The position numbers were made by a program, and so were the translations under genes. From the NCBI GenBank assembly GCA_028534125.1, contig CM052816.1:80168001-80232000 (forward strand): a DNA stretch of 64,000 bases. The letters are read 5' to 3'. This document shows, in pieces, positions 2,511 to 55,589 of the stretch. Position 1 is the stretch's first letter. The number at the start of each line of letters is the position of its first letter. This DNA is from Lama glama (Eukaryota). The notes beneath the pieces are model-generated. The model saw only the letters and a program-made list of their open reading frames with translations, searched no databases and was not told where the DNA came from.

Positions 2511-2710
2511 TGATTTTTGTTTATTGCCCTTTGATAAATATTAGGAAAACAACACTCTTACTTTATTTACTCATTCATTCAAACTTATTTGATGAGTGGG
2601 CAAACCATATGCGAGATTCTAGGGATAAATGATTAAGAAGATCCTTTAGAAACTCACAGTCTTGGCACAGGATTAGCAGTCTTATCATGAAATTACAGCA
2701 GAGCTGCAAG

Positions 2711-3274
2711 TGTGAAGACCCACTCAGATCCCCAGAGTTGGTACAAAGATGATTTTAAACCGAAGACATTTGAGATTCAACAGATGCCGAAAGAAGCCTT
2801 CTCAGAGCTTCCCTTATCTGACTAAAAGCAGAAACTTCTGAGAAATGAGGGTTGCCGTAAATTCTCTCTTTGGGGGCATGTCTGCCCCCAAGAATGACTA
2901 AGAGTAAACCTACTATAAATCTCTTCTCTGGGGGCAGTTTTCGGCTCTGAAAAGGAAAGACTGCTCAGTCCTGTATAGACAAACATCATCAGAAACTTTC
3001 TTATCTCTGGTTTGTTCTCCTAAAATAAAATCCATTTGTCTTTTGTAAAAGAACCTATTCTTCCAATAGGAGCCTTTCTCCTCCATCCTTTTTCCTACTA
3101 CTCTACTAATTCTAACAACCTTTTGAGTTACTAGCCACTGAGCACTCCTATGTTTATTCACATTAGACATGTAAATAACTTTTTTCTCCTGCTAATTTGT
3201 CTTTTGTTAGTTTAATTCACAGGCCCTATTCACTGAACATAAAAGAGTCACAGAAAAGCTATTTCTCTTCTACA
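2711..3274 (+). mobile_element. ERV1 solo LTR, MER34/MER89-like
   Basis: TG...CA termini with a perfect 4-bp TSD CAAG (2707-2710 / 3275-3278). Internal motifs gaagacatttgagattcaacagatg and tctcctgctaatttgtcttttgttagtttaatt are MER34-group-like. Confidence 0.8.
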
Positions 3275-9581: not shown

Positions 9582-9678
9582 ATTTTTTTTAAATTTTTTT
9601 TTTAATGGAAGCATTGGGAATGGAACCCAGGACCTGGTACACACTAAGCAGGCGCTCCATCACTGGGCTATTATCCCC
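9582..9678 (-). mobile_element. tRNA-derived SINE, Vic-1-like (camelid)
   Basis: The reverse complement reads GGGGATAATAGCCCAGTGATGGAGCGCCTGCTTAGTGTGTACCAGGTCCTGGGTTCCATTCCCAATGCTTCCATT followed by an A-tail. TSD ctatggcttcttctt (9567-9581) / ctatggctcctcctt (9679-9693). Confidence 0.85.
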
Positions 9679-30710: not shown

Positions 30711-30836
30711 GGGGGCGGGTATAGCTCAAGTGGTAGAGTGCATGCTTAGCATATACAAGGTTCTGGGTTCAATTCCCAGTACCTTCCCCAAAATTAATTA
30801 AATAAACAAATCTAATTACCTCCCCCTGCAAAAAAA
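30711..30836 (+). mobile_element. Vic-1-like tRNA-Ala-derived SINE (long-tail form)
   Basis: GGGGGCGGGTATAGCTCAAGTGGTAGAGTGCATGCTTAGCATATACAAGGTTCTGGGTTCAATTCCCAGTACC, followed by the tail aataaacaaatctaattacctccccc and an A-run. Confidence 0.9.
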
Positions 30837-39845: not shown

Positions 39846-40103
39846 GTTAAAAGGAAAATTTTTTACGAGCAAGTCTTGACTCTTTTAAACCTGCAGGGCA
39901 GGGTGCTCATTTCAGCAGGAGTTTAGCTGAGCTATAAATTGGAGAAAGAGTTTGTGTCCATCAGACACTTAATCATCTGTGTGAGGGAGTTTGTTCACAC
40001 CAGCTTTACATAGTTCATGAAGACAAATTACGATATTATGATGAGGTAGAAAATTGCTCTGCGAACCCGCCAGCAGGGACACCGTGGAAGAGTCTCTGAC
40101 TTT

Positions 40104-40430
40104 TGTTAAAAAAGATAAGTTGAGGCATATTAAAAAATTTAAGAGTTTATTTGAGCAAAACTTGATTCACACAGGGCAGTGCCAAATGAGAAATTGTTAG
40201 GAGTGCTTTACTGACAGAAGTTACAGAATGACTTTTATAAGAAAAAGGCAGAACAAAGCAAGGAAATTATTGATGGGCTATAGATTGAGGCCTTGTTACC
40301 TATTTGTGATTGGTTGTCCTTTGCATTTTGATTTGTAACCTTGAGGCACTTACAGACTTAGACTTCATTGCTGAAGGAGGCCACCACATTAGAGCCATGT
40401 CAGCCCAATGGCTTCCTTGTTTAATTAACA
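40104..40430 (-). mobile_element. ERV1 solo LTR (MER57/LTR8-group-like)
   Basis: Termini tgttaaa...ttaaca; TSD cttt/ctct; polyA-signal region gagtttatttgagc. Confidence 0.75.
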
Positions 40431-41062
40431 CTCTTAAAGAAAAGGGGGTTTTCTGAAATGTTCATGCCCCGCCACTAAAGTCAGTACTGCCTTCAGTTCT
40501 AATTGGAGGAAACCCTACTGAGTGTTTCCCCCTTGGGCCTACAGTGTATGGCATCTCTCTCCCTCTTCCTGGCCTGAAATCTCTTTCCTACGCAGAGCCT
40601 CTGGCTAGACAGCGAAGGCTGGCTCATGGTTTTAAGAAGTTGCCCATTAATGTCTTTGGGCCCATAATGGGTTGAGGGGTTCCCCTCACTTTAGTCTTGT
40701 TTGTATCCATCAGTCCCTTAGCACAGTGATCTTACAGAAGCCCAAGGCTTTGGACCACCGTCCTGCGAAGATAAGGTACAGGCAGCTTCCAAAGGGGAGA
40801 GAGGTAGCAACCCGACCTTCAGAGGAGAGGGAGGTGGCCCTGGCTGGGAATTCTGAGCAGCCTGAGAATAAACACTTGGGAAGGCGGCCTCTGAGTGATG
40901 GGATGACTCTCACAGGTGTTGGAGTGAACAAGAGAATATCTTGGAGAAGGACACCCTAACAAATCTCCCAAACAAACCCATGGCATGCCCCCATCAGGAC
41001 CTTTTTAGTATAGCTCTCCTAACATCACGCAATGAAAACGCTGCCTGTTTTCCTCAAAGAAA

Positions 41063-41078
41063 CCAACAGAGGGCGCTG
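41063..41078 (+). promoter_or_regulatory. Candidate CTCF motif
   Basis: CCAACAGAGGGCGCTG, one mismatch to CCASCAGAGGGCGC. Confidence 0.5.
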
Positions 41079-42220
41079 TCGCCTAATGAAAACTACATTC
41101 TAGTCCCCCTAAACCTAGTAATTTTCCCACCTGGTCAAGAGTCCGTTCCCACTCCAGTCTATGCAAATTCATCTTTTTGAGCATTCCCAGACTGAGTGTA
41201 TTTTTTCAGCTTCCTGCTCAGCTGTGGTGGAGATGTTTACAACAGGATCGCTGCTGAACATATACTGTGAGGACCAGGTAACAGAACATCCTGGTGGAGC
41301 CTGGAGAAACACGGAGGATGACAGATTGGACAGCGCTATTTGGTTGCACACAGAATGCGCGTCATTGTTGTGTTTAGGAGGCCAGGGATGACAACACTTC
41401 AAGGATGCAGAGGGAGTTTGGTTAGCGGAGAAGCAGGACAGGGAGGATTGTGCACCCTAAGAAAACGAAGTGGGTTGACACACACATGTGCCATGGACAC
41501 ATTCGACTAGGAGACACACACGAATTTTTCGACTGGTCAAAACGAGCAGGGATTTTGCTTCACCACCGTTTCACCAGGACCTGCCTGTAAGTTCAATGTG
41601 TCACTGATATTTAACTGATACACTCAATATCAAAATTTGTTGAGAAGTTCGATCCACTGGCTGTTTATGAGGCACTAAGTTATGTTCAGCTGTTTTAAGT
41701 GATTTTTTAAAAAACTCAGCTAACTGAACTGGCTTTGTTTGAAGATCACATAAGTATGGGGATAAATTCAATAAACACATTAACCCAACACTGCCCTTTC
41801 CCCCTCAGCTCTCCTGAAACCCTCCTGTTCTCCTTGACTTTCTTCCTCGTGGGTTCCCTTGGAGACGGGTTACCTTGAGCCTGGCTGCAGCTGAGACTGA
41901 AGTCAGCCCAGTGTTTCCCCCAGAGTCGGGTGGCCCAGGTCCCCAGGGGAACTCACTCTGCTCCTCCTGCTTCTCATCTCCAGGGCAAGCCCCAGCGAGG
42001 CGGCAAGAGTTCTTCTTCCTTCCTCCACTAGGAGCCCATCACTTCTTTTTGTTGCACTGCTCAGAACTTCAGAAGTGACCATGGGCTTGTCACTTAGCCC
42101 ACGTGGACCAGTTTCCTCATCAGGGACCTGAGACTCACCTCCAGCAACTCTGTGCTCCCTTTTGTCTCCAGCTTTCTCTGCTTTTCAGACCCACACACCC
42201 TGGGGCAAGTCAGGAGATAG

Positions 42221-42628
42221 TGTTACTGAGTCCAAACTTGTACTGCTCACTGCACAACGAGCCAAAGAGATGAGAGATGAGCTGTTGGGGCAAGGAATGG
42301 CGACTTTATTTGGAAAGCCAGCAGACCGCGAAATGGTGGACTAGTGTCCCAAAGAATCATCTCCAAGTTAGCATTCAGGCTTCTTAAAGGGGAAGGGGTG
42401 AAGTCCTGGTTCCAGCCAGACTCTGGAGATTTGTTAATTTCTTCCTTCCTGCAGCCATTCACGAGTGAGCCTTGTCAGGATGCTTCCTGTGAGCTAAACA
42501 AAAGTATTTTAGCTTAATGCTCATACCCTGGGAGCCAGGGTTCCCAGCGATGGGCCATTATTTAACGTTATAGGCAACATTTCTTTGGCGATGAACTTGT
42601 AGTAGAATACAGTTTCTTCTCTGTTACA
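42221..42628 (-). mobile_element. ERV1 solo LTR (cetartiodactyl, MER41-group-like)
   Basis: Termini tgttactgagtccaa...tgttaca; TSD atag/gtag. gactttatt reads AATAAA on the minus strand. Confidence 0.8.
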
Positions 42629-42653
42629 GTAGCAGCCACACCTGAGTGTGGGG

Positions 42654-42792
42654 CAGTGGTACCCAAAGCCTGGCCTTGACCTGCAGCAGCTGCACCTGGG
42701 GACTTGATAGGCATTTGGAATCTGAAGCTCTGGGGCCGGGGCCCTTGGGATGTGACAGAGCAGCCCCCAGGGTTCTGATGCCCAAGCCACTA
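42654..42792. mobile_element. MER5A-like hAT MITE
   Basis: Motif cagtggtacccaaag...gcacctggggacttg...gaatctgaagctctgggg...ggttctgatg...ccacta. Confidence 0.65.
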
Positions 42793-44092
42793 TCGGGTTT
42801 GTGCTGTGGGAAGGGAGGGGGCAAGAGACACAGAAGAGACTGGAGCTTGGGCACCAGAGGCTGGAGGAGTGGAGTCAGGGAGGGGCTGGGGGGTGGGATA
42901 CAGAAAGCACAAAATTCCAGGTGAGAGAAGAGGCAGTGCCAGCGGTGAGGGTGCCAGGGCAGCTGGCAGCTCAGGGCACGGGCTCTCGTCAGACAGCTTA
43001 CATCCGGGCTTCGCCACCTGCTGCTGTTCACGACCTGGGCAAGAAGTTTAAATTCTCTGTGCTCCCATCTTGTCTCTAAAAATCTAACGGAGCCAGTAGT
43101 GGTCTGGGGTGGGCACTGCCCATGGGCCCCTAAGCCTCGCCCTAGTCCCTTTAGGATACTCCCCCCTGTCATCTTTGCTCTTTCTGGATGTTAAAATCTG
43201 ATCTCCCTGTCCAAGTGCCCTGTCCTCACCCCCTAACATGACAGCAGCCCCCAAACAATGACTGCTATGGTTTTGTCAAAACCCCAGCTCTCTTGCCCCT
43301 TTGTTCCTAAAACTGCTGTGTGTTCTGCACGGATGCCAGTTTCCCATCAGGAATGGGCTCCCTTTACCCTGTGGGCTCCCTTTACACTGTTTATCAGCAT
43401 TTCACGTTCCAACTCTCCTGGGCTTGCTTCCAAAGGTCGCCTTCCAAACAAACAACATGCCCTTGAGGCTTCATCTCCAGAGCTCCTTTTGGGAAACCAT
43501 GCTGATCCAAGAACTTGCCCTCTAGGGTTGATGTGAGGATCAATGGAGTCAATGCTGAGAGCTGTGCTTGGCACACAGTAGGTGCTGCGTAAATGATCAC
43601 TGTCGTTATCACGAACTGAGCACTGACTCTCGAATCAGGATACCTGCCTCTCATCCTGCTTTCCAGCCTGCCAGCAAGGGGAGCCTGAGGAAGCTGGTTA
43701 CCCTCCGTGAGTGTCAGTTTCTGCCCTTGTAGGGCTACTCTGAGAATGAAATAGAAGAAATCTGCAGGCACTTTGCAAACGGTGAAGGGTTACACCGAAG
43801 TGAAAGGTAAAAACCAAAGGCTGAGGAAATCGTGCCCAGCTAAACTCCATTTATCCTGGAGCCAGGAACCAGGACTGCCTAGGACCAGAGGGAACCCTCC
43901 TGAAGGCAGCGCCCACCCACCTGGGAGGGTGGGACATGGACGGGGATGCCTCAGCCTTGCTCTTTGACACAGCAGTTTTGGGCACTGCTGAAAATCAGGC
44001 TGTTTTGTCCATCCAGTGCTGAGCGCTTGGGGCAGAGTATCTTAGGATTCAAAAGGATTGTATTTTGAGGTATTTTAAATGGGTGTGTTAAA

Positions 44093-44191
44093 CGGTTGGG
44101 CATATAGCTCAGTGGTAGAGGGCATGTTTGGCATGCACAAGGTCCTGGGTTCAACTCCCAGTGCCTCCACTAGGGGGAAAAGCAAGGACTA
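44093..44191 (+). mobile_element. Vic-1-like SINE
   Basis: tatagctcagtggtagagggcatgtttggcatgcacaaggtcctgggttcaactcccagtgcctcca. TSD aaatgggtgtgtta (44077-44090) / aaatgggtgtatta (44192-44205). Confidence 0.88.
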
Positions 44192-44351
44192 AAATGGGTG
44201 TATTAGAAATAGGAGTAATGCCAGATAGGGATGTAAATACACTGCCACCATTCAAATATATATCTTTTACGAACTAAATCCTCATAACATGAAAAGTGCA
44301 ATGCAGCATACTTATGCCATTAGCATCATAATTAAACTATTTGTAAATGGC

Positions 44352-45450
44352 TTTTTATTGAAGTACAGTTGATTTACAATGTTGTGTTAGTTTCTGGTGT
44401 AGAGCATAGTCATTCAGTTATACATGTATATTCTTTTTCATATTCTTTTTTATTATAGGTTATTACAAGCTGGTAAATAGTTCCCTGTGCTATACAGTAG
44501 GACCTTGTTCTTTATCTGTTGTGTATATAGTAGTTTGTATCTGCTAATCTCAAACTCCTAATTTCTTCCCCCAACCCTTTCCCCTTTGGTAACCATAAGT
44601 TTGTTTTCTATGTCTATGAGTCTGTTTCTGTTTTGTGAATAAGTTAATTTGTGTCCTTTCTTTAGATTCCACATAGAAGTGATATCAAATGATTTTGTCT
44701 CTGTCTGTCTGACTTACTTCACTTTGTATGATAATCTCTAGGTCCATCCATGTTGCTGCAAGTGGCATGATTTCATTCTTTTTTATGGCTGAGTAGTATT
44801 CCATTTTGCATATATATCACAAATTCTTAATCCAGTCATCTATCAATGGACATTTAGGTTGCTTCCATATTTTGGCTGTTGTAAATAGTGCTGCTATGAA
44901 CATTGGGGTACATATATTTTTTCCAATTAGAATTTTCTCCGGATATATGCTAAATCATATGGTAAGTCTGTTTTATTTTTTTAAGGAATCTCTATGCTGT
45001 TTTTCATAGTATCTAAACCAAATTACATTCCCACCAACTGTAAGGAGGATTCCCTTTTCTCTATACCCTCTCCAGTATTTATCGTTTGTGGAGTTTTTAA
45101 CGATGGCCATTCTGACTGGTGTGAGGTGATACCTCATTGTAGTTTTGATCTGCATTTCTCTGATAATTAGTGATATTGAATATCTGTTCATGTGCCTATT
45201 GGCCATTTGTATGTCTTCACTGGAGAAATGTCTGTTTAGGTCTTCTGCCTTTTTTTTTTTTTTTTTTGATTGGGTTGCTTGTTTTTTTGTTACTGAGTTG
45301 TATGAGCTGTCTGTATATTCTGAAAGTTAAGCCCTTGTCAGTTGCATCATTTGCAAATATTTTGTCTCATTCCATAGGTTGTCTTTTCATTCTGTTTATG
45401 GTTTCTTTTGCTGTGCAAAAGCTTGTACGTTTAATTAGGTCTCATTTGTT
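44352..45450 (-). mobile_element. 5'-truncated L1 (ORF2 C-terminus plus 3' UTR)
   Basis: The minus-strand ORF 44973-45206 ([35 protein letters not shown]) matches the L1 ORF2p C-terminal domain but is frameshifted. The 3' UTR runs to 44352. Confidence 0.95.
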
Positions 45451-47104
45451 CATGAATTAGTCTGAATTCATAGTGCAGGGCTAGGGCAAGACTCAGAAAT
45501 CTTCTCACCTGAACCCTGTGTGTTTTGTCGAAGAAGGCACAACCTCAACAGGCAAGATGTCAGAGCTCTGAGTTTTCAGCCCTTTGTCCCCCATCTGAGC
45601 AGGGCAGGCTGTTTTGAAAGTGGAAGTGTCGGAAGGACCTTCTGGGGACCGTGTGGCGTGTGGTTTGCAGGGGGGAGACAGAGACACGAGATTTGTTTGG
45701 AGATAACAGCCGTCTGGACTGAGGCCCTGAAGAGCTGAAATAAACCCTTAAAAATGGTGATGAACAAGGTCAAAGGGGCTCACAGAGATATTTTGAAGGG
45801 GCAATCTCCTGGTTTTGGTTTTCCACATGTGAAATAACAGAAACACAAACAGAATTAACAGAGCTCCCCTCCCATTTTTAAGTGAACACAGAGAATTCGT
45901 CTACAGCGTCCAGAAACTTCCAGTAACTTCCAGTAACTGGTGACTTCTGTCAGGGTCCTGTCTCCCTCTCCTGAGGAGAAGAAAGACTTCCAGTCGGGCA
46001 GGCAGCTTGCCAGTGACTATTCCTCCAGCAATGCACATTTGTATTTTTTCCCCTGATGCATGTTTTTCCTCAAAATGTCCAGGCAAAAGCCAGTGGGAGA
46101 CAGTGTGTCCCAGGCAGCCGGCGTTGCTGACAGAAGTCATTCTGGATGGTGGGAGGACTGAGATGTCGCAGCTGCAAGGCTGCCGTTGTCCTTGTATTGC
46201 CCGCGAAGGGGTGATTTGTCTGGAAAAGGACGGGAGAGTGGACATCAGCTCTTGAAGTGGAGCATTCCCGTAGGGGCGGAGGTGGGGTCCTGGTGAGGGG
46301 ACGGTCTCCTGGGAGGCTGGCCAGGTCCCCTCCTCTCAGACACAGCGCTCTGCTCCCCACTGGGAAGGGCCAGGCGGCTTAACCCCCATCTCAGCCAGCT
46401 TCTCTACCTCAAGAGCCTCAGCGTCGCCAACTGAAAAGTGATAACAACGTGGCAGGAAGCGGCTCAGCCAGGCTGCTGTTCGAGGTGCGGCAGCCTTTCC
46501 GGGGGGACAGGCAGGTGCTGGGAGGAGAGACACAAGCGTCCGAGCGGAGAGGAGACAGCCTCCCAGTGAGGGCCCCGGGCGCTTGGCTTTGGGGGTTTCT
46601 GAGAACGGGGGAGGCCTGCGCCCAGTTACCACACAGCTCGCTAGGACAAGTGTGAGGTTTCTGAAGAGGCTGAGGGTGGAAACAGGAGGGGAAAGCTAAG
46701 AGCGGTGGCCTTGGAGGCTGAGGCCCAGCATGCCTGCTTCTATGCTTGGCTCAGAGGACATGAAGCCCCCTGACTCTCCTGACGTCCAACGGGCTGCCGC
46801 TCCGTGCGACCCGGAAGGAACCACATCCAGGCTTCCTGCTTTCCAAATGTAATAAGCTCTTCGGATTCTTGTCTGACCCTAGGAAGGGGGGGGGGAGATC
46901 CCCCAAACACGACTGGGGTTGCATTGCCCACCGCCTTTAAATAAACAACAACACACAGGCCCAGGTTTGTGGGCTCGGGAGCTTGGGGGACTTGGAGAGC
47001 AGTCTTTAAGGAAAAGAATACAAGGCCACGAACACACAGGTGCAGAAGTGATTATTCATTCTGAACAAGGAATTGCAACTAATCACGAAATTTAAACAAC
47101 AAGC

Positions 47105-47547
47105 TGTATTTAGATTCCTGTGGCTGCCATCATAGGACCACGCAGTTAGTGGCTTAAAATAACAGAAATGTCGTCTCTCACAGTTCTGGAGGTCAGAAGT
47201 TTGAAACCAAGCCGTCAGCCAGGCCGCACTCCCTCCAGGGCCTATAGGGGAGAATCCTTTCCTGGCATGTTCCAGCTTCTGGGAGCCTTGGCTTCCTTGG
47301 CTTGTGGCCACATCACTCCAATCTCTGCCTCTGTGGTCACATGGCCTCCTTCTCTCCTGTTTGTCTCCTCTGTGTGTCTCTCATAAGGACACTTGTTATT
47401 GGATTTCGAGTTCACTTGGATAATCCAGAATAAGCTCATCTCAAAATTCTTAATTATATCCACAAAGACTCTTCTCTTCCTAATACAGGAAAGTTCATGA
47501 ATTCCAGGGACATGTCTTTTTGGAGGCCACCAGGCAACCCACTACTA
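47105..47547 (-). mobile_element. MaLR solo LTR (MLT1D-like)
   Basis: Motif tgtattagattcctgtggctgcc...ccacatcactccaatctctgcctctgtggtcacatggcc...caacccactac. Confidence 0.88.
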
Positions 47548-48505
47548 CCAGACAAATACCCTAAACATCACAAATCGTGAGAAGATAACGGTACATTTTT
47601 TATTAAATAACTCTCTGACACACTTCCGAATAACTTCTTCCTACAATTTTGGGCTGTATACCCTTTGCCTGCCTCTCTAAGTGACAATAAATTTATGATT
47701 TCGTTTTCTGTAAAGACAATAGGAAGAAGGTCTGTGTTTAGTCCATCAGGATTTATTTTAAATGTGCATGTTATGACCGGTAGTTAGGGGACAGAGAACA
47801 TGCGACTCCATACATTTGCTGCTTCTAGCGCTGTTTTAGGTCTGTGCCCACAAACTCAGGAATTCTGATAAATTCTATTTCATGTGATTCCTATCAAAAC
47901 AGGAAAAGAAAAAGTAAGATGCTGTTACTTGATTCCTAGAGCTGATATAACAAAGTGCTACAAACTGGGTGGCTGAAAACAACAGAAATGTATTCTCTCC
48001 CAGGCCTGGAGGCTCTAAGTCCAACGTCAAGGTGTGGGCAGGGCCAGGCTTCATCGGGGACTCTGGGGAGACCCCTTCCTCACCTCTCTGTAGCTCCGGT
48101 GTTGCCATCAATCCATGGCAGTTCTTGGCCTTCCCTGGTTAGCAGCTGATGGTTCCCATCTCGTCCTCCATCATCGCATGGCATCTCCAGGGTGTCCAAA
48201 TTTCCCTCTTTGTAAAAGGCCATCGATCATTGGGTTAGGGCCTACCCTACTCCAACAAGAGTAAGTATATAAATACGACTTCATTTTAACTGATATTTTA
48301 ATTATATCTCTGATGAAATAGGGTTTATATTTTAGGGAAGACAAAAACAATTTAAACATAATATTTTTGTCTGCCGGCTTGGGCCTCCCCCCTCCCCTCT
48401 AGTGTGCACTGTTCACCTGCAATATGCATTAACCAGGCCTCCCCAAGGGTAGAAATACCTGCTCAACCATAAAGATTAGTTTTTCTTCTTTTGGTGCCAG
48501 CCATG

Positions 48506-48984
48506 TGTAAACAAAAAGTACTGCAAGCCATATCAGTAAACAAAGAATGCTGAAGTCATCAAGTCATCAGCGGCTCCCGACACACCCCAGTGTAGACAAG
48601 ATTGCAGCCCAGCCTCTGCAGCCACTCACAGTGGTGCACCCTGAGGGGACTCAGAATAAGAAAGGATGGGATACTGGCTCTAGATAGCTAGGTGCTTGTC
48701 AAAGGAATGATTTCAATGAGCCCCAATGTTTGCTCCCTCCCATAAACAGAAAAGCGCTAAATTCTTTAACTTCAGATACCTGGTTTTCTTCAGTTAACAA
48801 GCAATCTTTCATTGTTCCGACTACCTGGTCTTTGTTGTAAAGCACCTGTATATCCTAGCTCCTCCCCTGCCTCTTTGGAGCAGTCCCTCAGAGCGATTTG
48901 AGAGGCTGTCATCCCGGCTCGAGTCCTCCCGCCAAATGAAACGTAACTCTCGACTTTTAGGCTGCGTGTTTATTTCGGTTGATG
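48506..48984 (+). mobile_element. ERV1 solo LTR 'B' nested in LTR A
   Basis: Runs tgtaaac...ggttgatg and has its own TATA-like and R/U5-like blocks. Similar to 33758-34273. The TSD is not clean. Confidence 0.7.
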
Positions 48985-49147
48985 CCACAATATTCGTTCT
49001 TCTCAAATAGCAGTAACCTTCTACCAAGATGTGTGCTTGGCTGCGTGGACTGCTTCACCAAAATCACATATATAGTGCCCTCCCCTGGACTCTTTGGGAC
49101 GGTCCTCAGAGCTTTCTGAAAGACTGTCTCCTGGATTATAATCCTCA

Positions 49148-49736
49148 TGTTGCCGAAAGCTCGGCACCCCGTCCCTGACAAGCCGGGTAATTCAGAGACC
49201 GCGTCTTGGAGCTGAAAAGAAAAGAGGCAGCTTTATCACTTTGCCAGGCAAAGGGGACTCACAGCAGGCTGGTGCCTTCAAAACCGTGAGCCCGCCTTGA
49301 GGATGGGGCACGGTGGTTACATAGCCAGAGCTCAAACAACAAAGCATCGATAACAATCAACAGAATCATTTTCTCATCAGAAGATTTAGAGTGGTGTCAT
49401 GATGCCTCCAGGCGGCCAAATCTATAGTGGCCAGCGGTTAGATCTCTTTATCCCGTAAGCACTCAAGGCATGGTCTTCTTGGTAATTCAGGCTATTTTGT
49501 AAGGTTACAGTCCTGTGATCTTCTCCTTGGAGAACTACTCAGAGACCAAGCATGAGTATTACTTTCAATTCCTGGAATAAAGTAGAAACAGTAAGATCAA
49601 TAGCTTTAGTTTTAACGATGGGCCTGGGGCTGTAAGTAGCAACCAGTCCGTCAGGTTTGTTGACCGTTCTAAGGGCAAGCATAAGAATTAAGCAATCTGT
49701 TAGCCTAAATGTGACCATTTTATTATTCCTCCTTCA
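49148..49736 (-). mobile_element. ERV1 solo LTR 'C' nested in LTR A
   Basis: Termini tgttgccgaa...tccttca; perfect TSD CTCA (49144-49147 / 49737-49740). Confidence 0.85.
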
Positions 49737-52230
49737 CTCAGATTGGCTCAAATCAAATTCTCTACTTCTTTCTCAGACTGACTATTAATTAATTTTTCGT
49801 CAACATCTGGAAAGACCCTACTTCCAAATAAAGTCACATTCACAGGTATAGGGGGTTAGGACCTCAACCTGTCTTTTTCTGAGACACAATTCAGGTGCAT
49901 TTATAACTGTATGGGATGCATTCTTCAGTATACACCCGGAGAGAGCCTTCGTCTCGGACTATGTGTCAATGAGAAGCAAATTCTCCACTTACGGTTTCAC
50001 CCACCTGATGGCTGGGACAATCTTCCGTAGGCTAGCTTCCAAATCTGGATATTTCAAACCTGTTTATTATGTTTGCCATAATTTTCTGGAAGAATGGCAT
50101 GTATCATAAAATTCAGAAACCCCAAATGAAACACCCTCATAGAGGGACCAAAGAAGAAGGCTGTGTCATAGAAATGAATGTCTGTGGAGGGTGAGTGTTG
50201 CCTCTGGATGGAGAACAGAGTGAGTCCTTAATTCTTGAAGATGTGGAGGGACACGAGATCTTAATGCTCTCCATAACTAGTTGTCCATTTCAGGATTTCC
50301 CAGTACTCACTCTGGAGGAGTTCCTCAGATCTCACATCTCTCCTGCTTTACTTTAATCCCACCTTTCTGAGTTTAGAGGTCTCAGAACAGACAGTGACTA
50401 CTCAGCCTGCTTGCCCTTAAATCCTCCCATCTGCGTCTGCCGGGTGGGACCTGGCCCAGGCAGCCTGGTCACCGAGCCTGGGCCCGGCTGGCTGCAGGCG
50501 CCCCAGCTGCAGAATGACTTCATTTACATTGCTATTCAGAAGCAAATGGCCCAGCTCAACGGAAAGTCTTTCATTTCTAACAGACAAGCCAGTATGTGGC
50601 ATTTTTCTTTTCCTTACTCTGCAGGGTAAAATGAACCTTGCAGATGTTCCTATAATATTAGGAGAATAAGATTCACAGATGAGCTGCCGAGAGTGGCTTG
50701 GCTTTGATACTGGGTTAGCCAGTTGCCATGTGGCCTGTGGTCAAGTCAGAGGGAGCAGCTGGGCATTGCATTTGAGAACTGACTTCATGGCTGTGGTCAG
50801 AAGGCCAGAAAGCCTGTTTGTGTAGCGTCTTCCCTCACAAACTGCAATGAATGTGCTTCTCCTGGATAACAAAGCCTGCAACGAAGGGGTGCAGATAAGA
50901 GCATCTCCTTGTCCTAGTAAAGTGGTGGGGGGCTCGGCTTTCTCTAATCCTGGTGGTGGTGATGGGGCAGTGGAAGTCACTGGGGGAAGCAGAAGGCAGG
51001 ACCCCTGACCTATCGGGACTCAACTAGGGGTGTCCAGATAAATAAATTCTACAGAATTGGTCCATGGTGACTTGGGAGTAGCCATCACCTCAGTAAGCAG
51101 AGACAAATGCATGCTGGAGCTGCTGATTTTGTGACAGACTAGTTTTACTAACACGGCCAAAGAAACTTTCAAACCAACCAATCAGCTCCCTCCTGCTTCC
51201 ACAGTGGTGAGGTCAGATCAACCCCAGGCCCCAGGCCCCACATGGACCAAAAGTTTACATTTGGTCCAATACCAAGAGTATACATGCGGAGAAAATTCCC
51301 AGGTTCAAAAATCAGAGTCTGTTTAAGAAAGAGTCCAGTTTGCAAATAACCGTTAGAACTCAACACAGAAAAATTCTCTTTTCATGGATGATACGGATGT
51401 GGGGGGTGTCACTCCCTTTGAGAGAATTAGCCGCCCTCTTCCCTTCCTCATTCCACGCTGATTTTCACCCTTGTTAAACTGTAGAGGGGGAGGGACCTTT
51501 TTCTGCCCTGTGAGGTTTGGCCTCCAGAGCCCTGGTAATTAAACTGACAAAAGACAAATTAACAGGAGAAGAAAAGGCATACACATTTTATTTGATGCTA
51601 ACATTTGTATGTGAATATGGAATATAATTGTATAAAAGAAATAAAGACTCTCAGAGGTGGTTAGGCCTGGAAATTTACAGACCATTTTTACCAAAAAGAG
51701 ATAAACTGCAGAGACGTGGCAGACAGGAAAAAGTTCAAGCTTCTAGAGGCAGTAAATTGTGGAAAAGTAAATACGTGGGGGAGACCACTGGAAGGTAAGG
51801 GTTGATTAGTAAGATTTGTGAGACAGTCTTCTCCTTGTGTCTCTGGACTGATAAGAGTCTAGGGTCATGTCTGGTGATGAATGGTGATTCACAGCCGCTC
51901 TGCTCTTCCCGGCACAAGGGAGGGGGTGGGGGACCCCTCCACAAAGCGAGATTCACGCCCTGTTTTTTGGCAGACAGTGGGAGGCAAGTAGAGAGCTTTT
52001 CTGTGTCTTATTAAAGAAATATCAGGGGCCTGGGGACGGTGGCGCCTGAGGAGGAAGCAGAAGGCCCGGGCCAGGCTGACCCCACAGGCTGCCCGGGCCA
52101 CCTCCTCGTGGGCACCCTCTGGCTGACCAGGGCCGTGCTCCCGAGGGCCCTCACTTTTGTGTTTGGCGTTCCTGGTGGCCCTCCCCCAGAACGAGCAGCT
52201 GATTGGAGGACTGCTGCCCTGCCTTGTACC

Positions 52231-52672
52231 TGTTACCGACCTGGGTTCATGGGCTACTTAATCAACAGAAATTGATAAAAGGCCAGATGAGAAGTTCAGA
52301 TAAAGCTTCCTTTCCTGGGACTCGTGCTGCAGCAGAGGGAGTGGAAACAAGTAACAGCTTCCCTTGCTCGCTCCCCAGGGAGGGGTGAACTGGTCCCTTA
52401 AACAGGGTGAGGGTAGGGGCAGGTCCAGGGGTCGGGCTGCTCACCCCTTTGGTGATGCTGGGTGCAGGGATCGTGTGCAGTACTTGTTTCTGCTCCTGAC
52501 ACCTAGGGTTTTGGGTCTTTTTGTATCTTGTTGTTCATAACTGGCCCCAACTGCGCATGCACACAGTTAGAGTTTCTGTGTATTCTCGTAGAGTTTCTGT
52601 GTATTCTGCTGCTCAGTCCTGGTGCAAGCACTGCAGCCCAGGGTCCCAGGTCCCAGGTCCCAGCCTGTCTCA
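52231..52672 (-). mobile_element. ERV1 solo LTR inside the retro-insert
   Basis: Termini tgttaccgac...cagcctgtctca; the minus strand starts TGAGACAGGCTGGGACCTGGGACC. It contains a tandem duplication of tagagtttctgtgtattct. The flanks tacc/tttc are a poor TSD. Confidence 0.75.
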
Positions 52673-53940
52673 TTTCTAACGAGTGTCCAGCAGCGCCACT
52701 TTCAGGGGCGGAGCAGCTGGGATGCTGGGAGCTACACCCCCACCGTCCTCTGGCTGCTGGACTGGTCCCACGTTGACTCCAAACCAGATGCCCTCTCGCT
52801 TCTCCGGCCAAACACTTCCTCTTTCACCCTGGTCTCTGGCTGCACCAATGTGGTTCTCAGGGTTGCTCCCTGGGTCCTTTTCAGGTCCCCGGTCAACATG
52901 GGCAGATCCGGTAAGAGGGAAGGATGGGGAACTCATAGTCCAGGCTTGGGGCCACTCAGGTCCTGGTGATGTTACCTGCAGAGCACACTGAGACCTCCTG
53001 GCAGAGGAGAGACTGAGTGAGCTTTCCTCTTATGTTAGTTCAGAAAGTATCACCCATTTCACTTAGACTGTGGTCGATGCTGCTAGTCACGTTTATCCCA
53101 AACCCAGGAGCCTTTCTTCTTTGGGAATAATGGCGATTCTGTGGGGAGAGTCATGGCCACACCTAAAGCCGTGGTGCCAGCCTCCTGAGCAGGGAGGGCT
53201 GGGGGATGGGGAGCGAGGTCGCTGGCTGGGCTGCTGGGAGCCCTCCAGTGCTGGGGCTTCATTCGGAGGCTTCTACTCCCACCTGCTTCTTCCTTGTTGG
53301 GGAGGAACCGATCCCAGGGGTCGCAGATCAGGTCAGCCCTGCTGGGAAGAACAGGCTCCAAGGCCAAGCAGATCAGAGGTGGTGTGGCTCCAGGAGGCGG
53401 CAAGATGATCAGAAAGGTCAGCCGGGAACATGGATGGGGCGTCAGTGCGGCACGTGGCTTGGGTTAGTCCTGGATGAAAGTCGAGGGGCCCTGAGCTGCT
53501 GTGCTGTGTTTGAGCCAAGAGAGGAGGGGGATGTACTCTTCATTCAAGTCCTGGGCCCAGCACTTGGCAAGAATCACCAACCAGGGGAAGCACAACGAAC
53601 TCTGTGAGAACAGGCGAAGCCTTGAGAGAAAGTTCTGGGGTCGGGGTCGGTGTGCCTGTAGACACGTAGGGTTCCGTGTGGACATGGAAGGGGTGATGTC
53701 TGCACAGACAAGCAGGAGGTTAAGCACCTCTGGGGATCCTGATGTGACATCTGGGAGGAAATCTTCATTTGGTGGCCTGATAGTCTGGGGTGCTGGCCCA
53801 GGTCGAGGGACTGGCAAGGTCCTGGGTCACGACAGCTAGTGGATTTTAACCCAGACGCCTGACTCCTTCAGTGCCACTTGCTGGTTTATTTAGAGCAGTC
53901 TCAGGACTGTGCCAATGAGCTGGGACCCAGCTCCTGTCAT

Positions 53941-53972
53941 CTGGGTCCTGGGTCCTGGGTCCTGGGTCCTGG
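53941..53972. repeat. (CTGGGTC)x4.5 tandem repeat
   Basis: ctgggtcctgggtcctgggtcctgggtcctgg. Confidence 0.9.
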
Positions 53973-55589
53973 TGCTGAGCAAGTGTGAGTGATGCTCAGT
54001 GTGCGAGCAGAAGGCACCTCCCCCAAATCCAGTCTACAAGAAAGAAGACCGGACTGTCAGTCACCCCGACTCCCTGCCCTGACCGCCCTCCCTGCTCCCC
54101 AGGGACCTCGTGTGGACGTTACTGTTGACCAGCAAACACCCGGGTGGTCAGAGCTGGAACTGAAGCAGGGACTCTGGGAAACTTCAGCACCGTTGGTGTT
54201 GTGGTGTGAGCTGGGTATATCAGAATACAGTACAGTGCGGATGCACCATGCGTTCAGTTCCATATGGAAACTGGGCTGGGTTCCTGGAGAAAGGATATTT
54301 ACATTTGATTTATGGTATTTTCTTTTCTAAGGCCCAGGTGGTGAGGGTGGAAATAGGGGTTGGCGCCCAGTGGGTGGAGTGTGACTCGTGCCCAGTGGGC
54401 AGATGCGAGGTGAGTGATGCTGCCTTCACTCCTGTCTGGTCCTGCCCACCTGGGATTCACGGGCTGCTGCCACCTGGGGCGTCTGACCTCCATGGTGGCC
54501 ACAGGCGGCCACTGCCCCCCTTCAGTCTCTCTGCTCAGTGGGTGTTCACTAGCACAAGAGGACTCTGGGTGGGTTTTTCTTGCCATCTAAGAGGCTGCTG
54601 TTTCTTGGGACATGTGATTTTAACCCATGCCAGAGGAGGGAGAATGGTAGGTATGTTTCTCCCACTTGAACAACTGGAGTTACAGAGAATGGGAGGACAG
54701 TGCCCAAGCCAGCATCCTGCACAGAGGACACTGCCAATCTGTAACCCGTGGCTAGGTAGGGCAAGCTCTCCCGGGCCTAGCAACCAGGAAAATCGTATCC
54801 AGTCAGCTTTACTTTAAACAGTATTTCCTAGCCATGCACAGAATCTGCTGCTCAGGAAAGATGTTTGAAAACGAGCCTAACTAAACGTGGCCCAAAATAA
54901 GAGTCTTGTACTTTTTCACTGGGAAAGAAGTTCTGCTCCCCTCCACTTGGGTGTGTTAAAAGATGGGATTGGAATTAATTTAACTCATTAAATCAAAATA
55001 AAATAGAACTCTGTCTTCTCAGGAAAAAAGGAGAAATATCAGAACTAGATAGTAAAGTGGTAGAAACAGGTTTTATGCAGGACTACCGCAGCAGGGAAAA
55101 GGAGAACTCAGCATAGAACTGGGCTCAGTTCCAAGCACAGCAGCGTGGGCAAGAGGGGGGTTGTAGCCAAGGAGCAGGGCGGGGGACAGGGGAGGGAAAT
55201 TACAGGAGGAAGCATCAAGGGTGGGGGGGATTCTTGCTAAACCAACCTAATGGGATTCTTGCCGAAGGCAGGCCAGAGTGATCAGACATCACCCGGACAG
55301 TGATGGAGGATGAGGAACCTGATATCAAGGGTGATTGGATATGGAAGGTGGGGATTCTAGCTAAACTGACTTAGCAGGATTGCTGATTAGACAATGAAGA
55401 GACGAACATGCAAGTACAAAAGTTGAGGTCTAGTCAAGCAGAGGGTCAGAGGAGTCTAACTAAAGTTTGCTCAAGGAGAGACTCTTTGTCAGTCTGCTGT
55501 TTCTCAATTGCTTTCAGCTCATTATTTATCTCATAAGTGACTAACACGCCCAATTCTGTGCATGAAATCCATCATCAGGTTCCCATGGA

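Follow-up and report, generated by a model that had tools for sequence, protein, structure and literature searches.

In a 64 000-nucleotide (nt) stretch of the llama genome (Lama glama, GenBank assembly GCA_028534125.1, contig CM052816.1, positions 80 168 001–80 232 000 of the forward strand; hereafter, the window), a segment of about 3 kb at window positions 52026–55031 is embedded in nested long terminal repeats (LTRs) and ends like a polyadenylated RNA. Which RNA gave rise to this insert, and why does it stop where it does? The original prediction, made from the letters alone, viewed it as non-native DNA, the result of L1-type retroposition of an RNA polymerase II transcript into nested LTRs, and could not name the parent; the target-site duplication (TSD), the poly(A) signal and the A-run all agree with that mechanism. 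Most probably, the insert is a 3'-shortened, semi-processed pseudogene of LMF1 (lipase maturation factor 1), derived from an RNA whose poly(A) site lay 2.1 kb inside intron 2 and which L1 copied in a heritable cell.

The parent gene

By sequence comparison, the parent of the insert is LMF1. A phmmer search with the frame 52027–52227 against 1.84 billion proteins yielded 10 matches, 9 of which carry LMF1 N-terminal sequence; those with a name are lipase maturation factor 1 of cat and of whale, and the remaining match is a repeat protein with no relation to LMF1. In a tblastn search of the window, whale LMF1 matches 52673–52906 (E 1e-24, 61.5% over 78 columns) and, again, 52015–52170 (E 4e-9), so the earlier statement that the insert holds no recognisable coding sequence has to be abandoned. 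Over residues 32–165, the copy is identical to camel LMF1 at 86 of 128 residues.

The first 111 nt of the insert show a coding-like GC content by codon position (0.81/0.59/0.84). At 52036, TVAPEE stands in place of the MAAPEE start, with ACG for ATG; on its own this match is insignificant (4/6 residues, one of 8 such matches in the window) and counts by position only. The insert thus appears to start 10 nt before the decayed LMF1 start codon and to have a nearly complete 5' end, although some 39 nt seem to have been lost near the N-terminus of the copy. The GC-rich first ~110 bp had been considered a possible tail of a parental open reading frame (ORF); the ORF is indeed parental, but because the start of the copy lies 10 nt upstream of the conserved ATG, this is its head.

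The relationship is invisible to some searches. Pfam detects no family in any of the 27 frames tried, word-seeded protein searches with the window frames return nothing, and only the unseeded phmmer search found LMF1; Rfam and ARAGORN report nothing within the insert. The expectation that protein-based pseudogene finders would miss this copy is therefore correct for Pfam and the word-seeded searches and wrong for tblastn, which finds it easily once LMF1 is the query. A JGI metagenome scan for LMF1 exon 2 gave 38 pattern matches, none of them confirmed, and the PDB contains no sequence match to camel LMF1.

One intron removed, the next one read through

At about 52159, exon 1 of LMF1 passes directly into exon 2; no intron separates them and 5 nt are missing where they meet, from which it follows that intron 1 had been spliced out. 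(The exon numbers agree with those of the human gene.) The exon boundaries are marked by other proteins: the exon 1 donor by 6 of the 10 phmmer matches, unnamed ORFs in which RALAF[VI]Y (with K for R in two of them) is followed by unrelated CES-type sequence; the end of exon 2 by three proteins (P0015, P0018 and P0019) that terminate exactly at GQIW; and the start of exon 2 by AFLVAF, the first residues of two of these three GQIW-ending proteins.

In the insert, exon 2 ends at 52910 and is followed by a donor, GTAAGA at 52911, with an immediate in-frame TAA. The LMF1 residues after GQIW (residue 168), taken from three isoforms, have no match in the window at E<=1. Later exons are thus absent, unlike in a retrocopy of a 3' untranslated region (UTR), which includes the last exon; one intron is cleanly missing, as in semi-processed pseudogenes, and the 2.1 kb that follow the exon 2 donor set the insert apart from fully processed ones.

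The identity of these 2.1 kb was approached through alternative LMF1 isoforms: of 125 fetched proteins that carry the exon 2 end motif, 10 continue in a non-canonical way. The tail of one of them, the cat isoform P0003 (UniRef100_A0ABI7W8D7), begins with CFFLVQEEP, and the insert encodes CFFLVGEEP at 53284 (8/9 residues), 374 nt past the donor and on the same strand. The match starts at the first residue of the tail. Across the six frames of the 64 kb, no other 9-mer comes closer than 6/9, and the match is equalled in 0 of 200 shuffles and 0 of 56 control segments; with frameshifts allowed, it extends weakly to about 53440, which 0 of 34 control segments equal. No AG acceptor is present in the insert at the 53284 homologue of this alternative exon. 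Because a cat isoform exon matches 374 nt past the donor, the sequence following the donor, apparently for its first ~0.5 kb, is LMF1 intron 2, and the remaining ~1.6 kb up to the 3' end would presumably belong to the same intron.

Three side observations concern the intron-derived part. In the cat, isoform P0003 includes an alternative exon from the corresponding place in intron 2 and terminates inside that exon, which may point to termination in this region in carnivores. The longest stop-free frame of the window (217 codons, 54164–54817, + strand; reached by 3 of 1000 dinucleotide shuffles) was considered as a gene and rejected, with flat GC content by codon position and no Pfam or Atlas match, and is probably due to chance. 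A MIR-like patch reported earlier at ~53825–53865 scores 35.5 against shuffled bests of up to 42.5, is not significant against the window and is thus MIR-like by presumption only; a second presumed MIR-like patch, at 54655–54715, is likewise not significant against the window.

Insertion anatomy

The original prediction read the ends of the insert correctly. The direct repeats that bracket it are an exact 11-bp TSD, AGAAATATCAG, at 52015–52025 and 55032–55042, the only two + strand copies in the window and within the 5–20 nt range of processed and semi-processed pseudogenes; with two mismatches allowed, the left TSD may extend to 13 bp. Exact 11-mer repeats are common in this region (33 are spaced 0.5–6 kb apart within 49–58 kb), and AGAAATATCAG is the only one of these 33 whose right copy is preceded by both a poly(A) signal and an A-run. 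The integration site, TT|AAAG, is read directly at the left TSD copy. The sole AATAAA of the insert lies at 54997–55002, just downstream of an ATTAAA at 54987, with a CA 18 nt later and A6 at 21 nt, so that AAUAAA/AUUAAA signals stand near the 3' end as in intronic poly(A) isoforms of the composite terminal exon type. The tail consists of A6 only, between GG pairs (55022–55031), and represents either decayed poly(A) or templated sequence. The predicted 7-mer repeat is present as well (4.6 tandem copies). No second copy of the insert exists within the window.

The insert and the elements around it are arranged as follows (position, strand, feature, basis):

51480–52008, −, outer LTR, 3' part, its last 4 bases being the left GTCT (alignment to 2782–3274)
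52009–52025, −, middle LTR, last 17 bp, including the left TSD of the retrocopy (sequence)
52015–52025, +, left TSD of the retrocopy (sequence)
52026–52159, +, LMF1 exon 1 remnant, with camel residues 32–62 at 52063–52158 (phmmer, tblastn, alignment)
52160–52230, +, LMF1 exon 2, 5' part, camel residues 65–87, with a 6-nt deletion (D81–R82) (alignment)
52231–52672, −, inner antisense solo LTR (sequence, TG...CA ends)
52673–52910, +, LMF1 exon 2, 3' part, residues 90–168, with a 3-nt insertion and a 1-nt deletion near the end (tblastn)
52911–55021, +, putative read-through LMF1 intron 2, 2111 nt from GTAAGA to the presumed cleavage CA (donor and cat isoform homology; 3' continuity inferred)
53284–53310, +, homologue of the start of the alternative exon after exon 2 in a cat LMF1 isoform (8/9 residues)
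54987–55002, +, ATTAAA and AATAAA poly(A) signals (sequence)
55022–55031, +, short purine tail, A6 between GG pairs (sequence)
55032–55042, +, right TSD (sequence)
55043–55491, −, middle LTR, main body (TG start next to GTCT)
55492–55545, −, right GTCT and outer LTR, 5' part (alignment to 2747–2784)

Nested LTRs around and inside the copy

All three LTRs are antisense to the LMF1 copy. Each half of the outer LTR was aligned on its own to a related LTR copy at about 2700–3274. The left part aligns to 2782–3274 with 298 of 462 positions identical (0 of 300 shuffles as good), and the short right part aligns weakly to 2747–2784 (11 of 300 shuffles as good), so that on the reference copy one half ends at 2784 and the other begins at 2782, with a 3-nt overlap. 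The related copy itself (+ strand) appears uninterrupted. The middle LTR is flanked by an exact 4-bp TSD, the predicted GTCT/GTCT, at 52005–52008 and 55492–55495; to the left of the insert only 6 bp of it remain in addition to the retrocopy TSD, and its main body has its TG start, on the minus strand, adjoining GTCT. The predicted nesting is thereby borne out in that the outer halves abut, firmly for the left part and weakly for the right one. As to family, we take the outer LTR and its related copy to be MER34-like and the middle LTR to be MER31-like.

The insert had also been described as apparently unique DNA, but a 442-bp antisense element resembling a solo LTR, with TG...CA ends on the minus strand, occupies 52231–52672. 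It splits LMF1 exon 2 between residues 89 and 90 without coding loss; given that camel LMF1 exon 2 is intact at this place, the element was inserted after the LMF1 copy arose. Its flanks, TACC and TTTC, match at 2 of 4 bases. We presume this LTR to resemble those of the endogenous retrovirus (ERV) group ERV1. An exact 21-bp tandem duplication is found within it, at 52568–52607.

Decay, age and relationships

The LMF1 copy, judging from its reading frame, is dead: the start codon is lost, frameshifts have accumulated and an LTR sits in exon 2. It differs at 13 of 52 columns that are invariant in 28 mammalian LMF1 proteins, compared with 0–3 for each working gene in the same test. In simulation, the ~28% amino acid change corresponds to 13–17% nucleotide divergence. 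At an assumed rate of 2.5–4 per billion per year, this would give a rough age of about 35–65 million years.

Camel LMF1 (XP_032316499.1, XP_031303648.1) belongs to the same gene family as the parent of the copy, and C65 and L72 are common to both. These are two of the eight camel-derived states; the copy also has the artiodactyl S143. Unlike camel LMF1, the copy is dead, spans residues 8–168 only and lacks the other six camel-derived states, a pattern that is compatible with an origin on the camelid stem. The protein tree provides no placement of the copy, and a grouping of copy and camel is not rejected (p of the approximately unbiased test, p-AU, 0.21).

In 15 DNA sequencing runs from three organisms and seven studies (one of the runs may be the source of the window), 0.86–0.95 of the words of 52674–55031 are present; because the parent, at ~15% divergence, could not supply these words, the copy itself would be common to the three organisms. 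Five RNA-type runs contain only 0.06–0.13 of the words and give no evidence of expression. Most likely, the copy does nothing today.

Alternative and preferred explanations

The classes of origin first proposed for this insert were a retrocopy of a long 3' UTR that had lost its 5' part, one of a long non-coding RNA (lncRNA), and an L1 3' transduction of the orphan type. They accommodate the TSD, the AATAAA, the A-run, the lack of an L1 body and the 70% of non-coding sequence. They are hardly credible now, because the spliced LMF1 exons 1 and 2, from the start codon on, refute them, and intron 1 of a host gene could not have been removed from an orphan transduction unless the RNA was an LMF1 transcript. 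The direction of truncation is also reversed: the 5' end is nearly complete, and the copy is cut short on its 3' side, in intron 2.

The parent and the exons being the same, L1 could have primed internally, on an A-rich patch in intron 2 of an LMF1 pre-mRNA that was only partly spliced. Splicing often takes out introns one after another, and an RNA with exons 1 and 2 joined and intron 2 still present is a normal intermediate. The A6 tail between GG pairs would fit such priming. The insert has, however, a single AATAAA in 3 kb, which lies 18 nt before the terminal CA and has an ATTAAA upstream, an arrangement with an estimated ~1–2% chance of arising by accident, and old poly(A) tails shrink; internal priming is quite unlikely. 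Distinctly more improbable is a chimera made in two steps, in which an earlier copy of exon 1, exon 2 and part of intron 2 was transcribed into its own flank and retroposed again, with the distal ~1.5 kb transduced. Such a history would explain why the link to LMF1 covers just the first ~530 nt after the donor, but it requires an extra event, and the insert shows neither an A-tract nor a TSD in its interior, nor a second AATAAA.

Several observations weigh against a polyadenylated LMF1 RNA that ended in intron 2. The A6 tail is so short that it could be templated. The evidence for the intron comes from one predicted cat isoform, a one-member cluster, and homology past about 53440 is inferred. 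The other 9 of the 10 non-canonical tails do not match the insert (they include four exon 3 variants and three whale tails that hardly differ from one another). In the searched supplements of human intronic poly(A) studies (PMC5928244, PMC8559711 and PMC10960005), LMF1 is absent. Finally, the protein tree joins the copy not to camel but, on a long branch, to Rhinolophus, to which it is identical at 87 of 128 residues and with which it has 4 of 14 derived states in common. C65, L72, Q99 and T110 occur in both; likely, these shared residues reflect convergence at mutable sites, which pulls the tree.

Under the preferred explanation, a copy of an LMF1 RNA that was polyadenylated in intron 2, an LMF1 transcript in an ancestor of the camelid line would have lost intron 1 and skipped the intron 2 donor, with cleavage and polyadenylation about 2.1 kb into intron 2, as in a composite terminal exon. 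Target-primed reverse transcription by L1 ORF2p, in a cell of the germ line or early embryo, would then have written this RNA of ~2.6 kb into a TT|AAAG site close to where an old solo LTR ends. Subsequently, an ERV LTR would have landed in exon 2 of the copy, which would have decayed neutrally by about 13–17% per site. The parent RNA would encode LMF1 residues 1–168 and stop at the donor, without the C-terminal tail that is needed for lipase maturation.

Other features of the window

Rfam tRNA matches and self-BLAST identify copies of a tRNA-derived short interspersed element (SINE) at 30715–30787 and 44098–44169 (+ strand) and at 9603–9671 (− strand); these are not real tRNA genes, and we take them to be the camelid SINE. 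Fragments resembling LTRs and L1 3' ends are dense at 40000–50000. In the parts of the window that were read, no host gene is recognised elsewhere.

Implications and relation to known retrocopies

The copy pins a predicted LMF1 intronic poly(A) site to the base and suggests that, tens of millions of years ago, heritable cells contained a short LMF1 RNA. It is possible, albeit doubtful, that the copy is the fossil of a regulated, long-conserved short isoform, such that proximal intron 2 would be a laurasiatherian termination zone, used through read-through in the LMF1 copy and through the alternative exon in cat, with a 168-residue N-terminal membrane fragment or a throttling of full-length LMF1 in the germ line or embryo as the outcome. 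If so, genome-wide searches for retrocopies with this structure could yield dated evidence of ancient intronic poly(A) sites. According to PMC11526315, C-terminal truncations of LMF1 cause severe hypertriglyceridaemia.

The literature search, which covered few subscription papers, found no account of the LMF1 copy or of an LMF1 intron 2 poly(A) site, and NCBI or Ensembl may annotate the pseudogene; neither did it find anything on retrocopies combined with intronic polyadenylation, and the camelid papers searched do not mention LMF1. The kind of object is already known, and the LMF1 copy is a further example. The review by Kazazian (PMC4151081) lists four marks of processed pseudogenes and defines the semi-processed class; the occasional retention of introns in retrocopies is noted by Baertsch et al. 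(PMC2584115), and TSD length is treated in PMC4862182.

Processed and semi-processed pseudogenes such as rodent preproinsulin I, as presented in the same review (PMC4151081), have a TSD of 5–20 nt and intron loss, as does the LMF1 copy, and an A-tail, to which its A6 may correspond, but they run to the normal last exon, whereas the LMF1 copy, 70% of which is intron, stops within the retained intron. Composite terminal exon isoforms are defined by Singh et al. (PMC5928244) and make up 61.6% of the 2675 isoforms assembled there; they have in common with the LMF1 copy the unused donor, the continuous run from donor to AAUAAA and the position near the 5' end of the gene. The LMF1 copy differs in being a DNA fossil rather than a measured RNA, and LMF1 is not named in the searched text of that study. 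A close parallel is the TMF1 copy in CYBB, which, as described in PMC4151081, stops at a poly(A) signal within intron 8: both copies are of the L1 type, have their early exons spliced and end at an intronic poly(A) signal. The TMF1 copy is a recent somatic insertion in a human, with a 100-nt tail, exons 1–8 and a retained intron 7, whereas the LMF1 copy is old, inherited, decayed, apparently present in three organisms, limited to two exons and later hit by an LTR.

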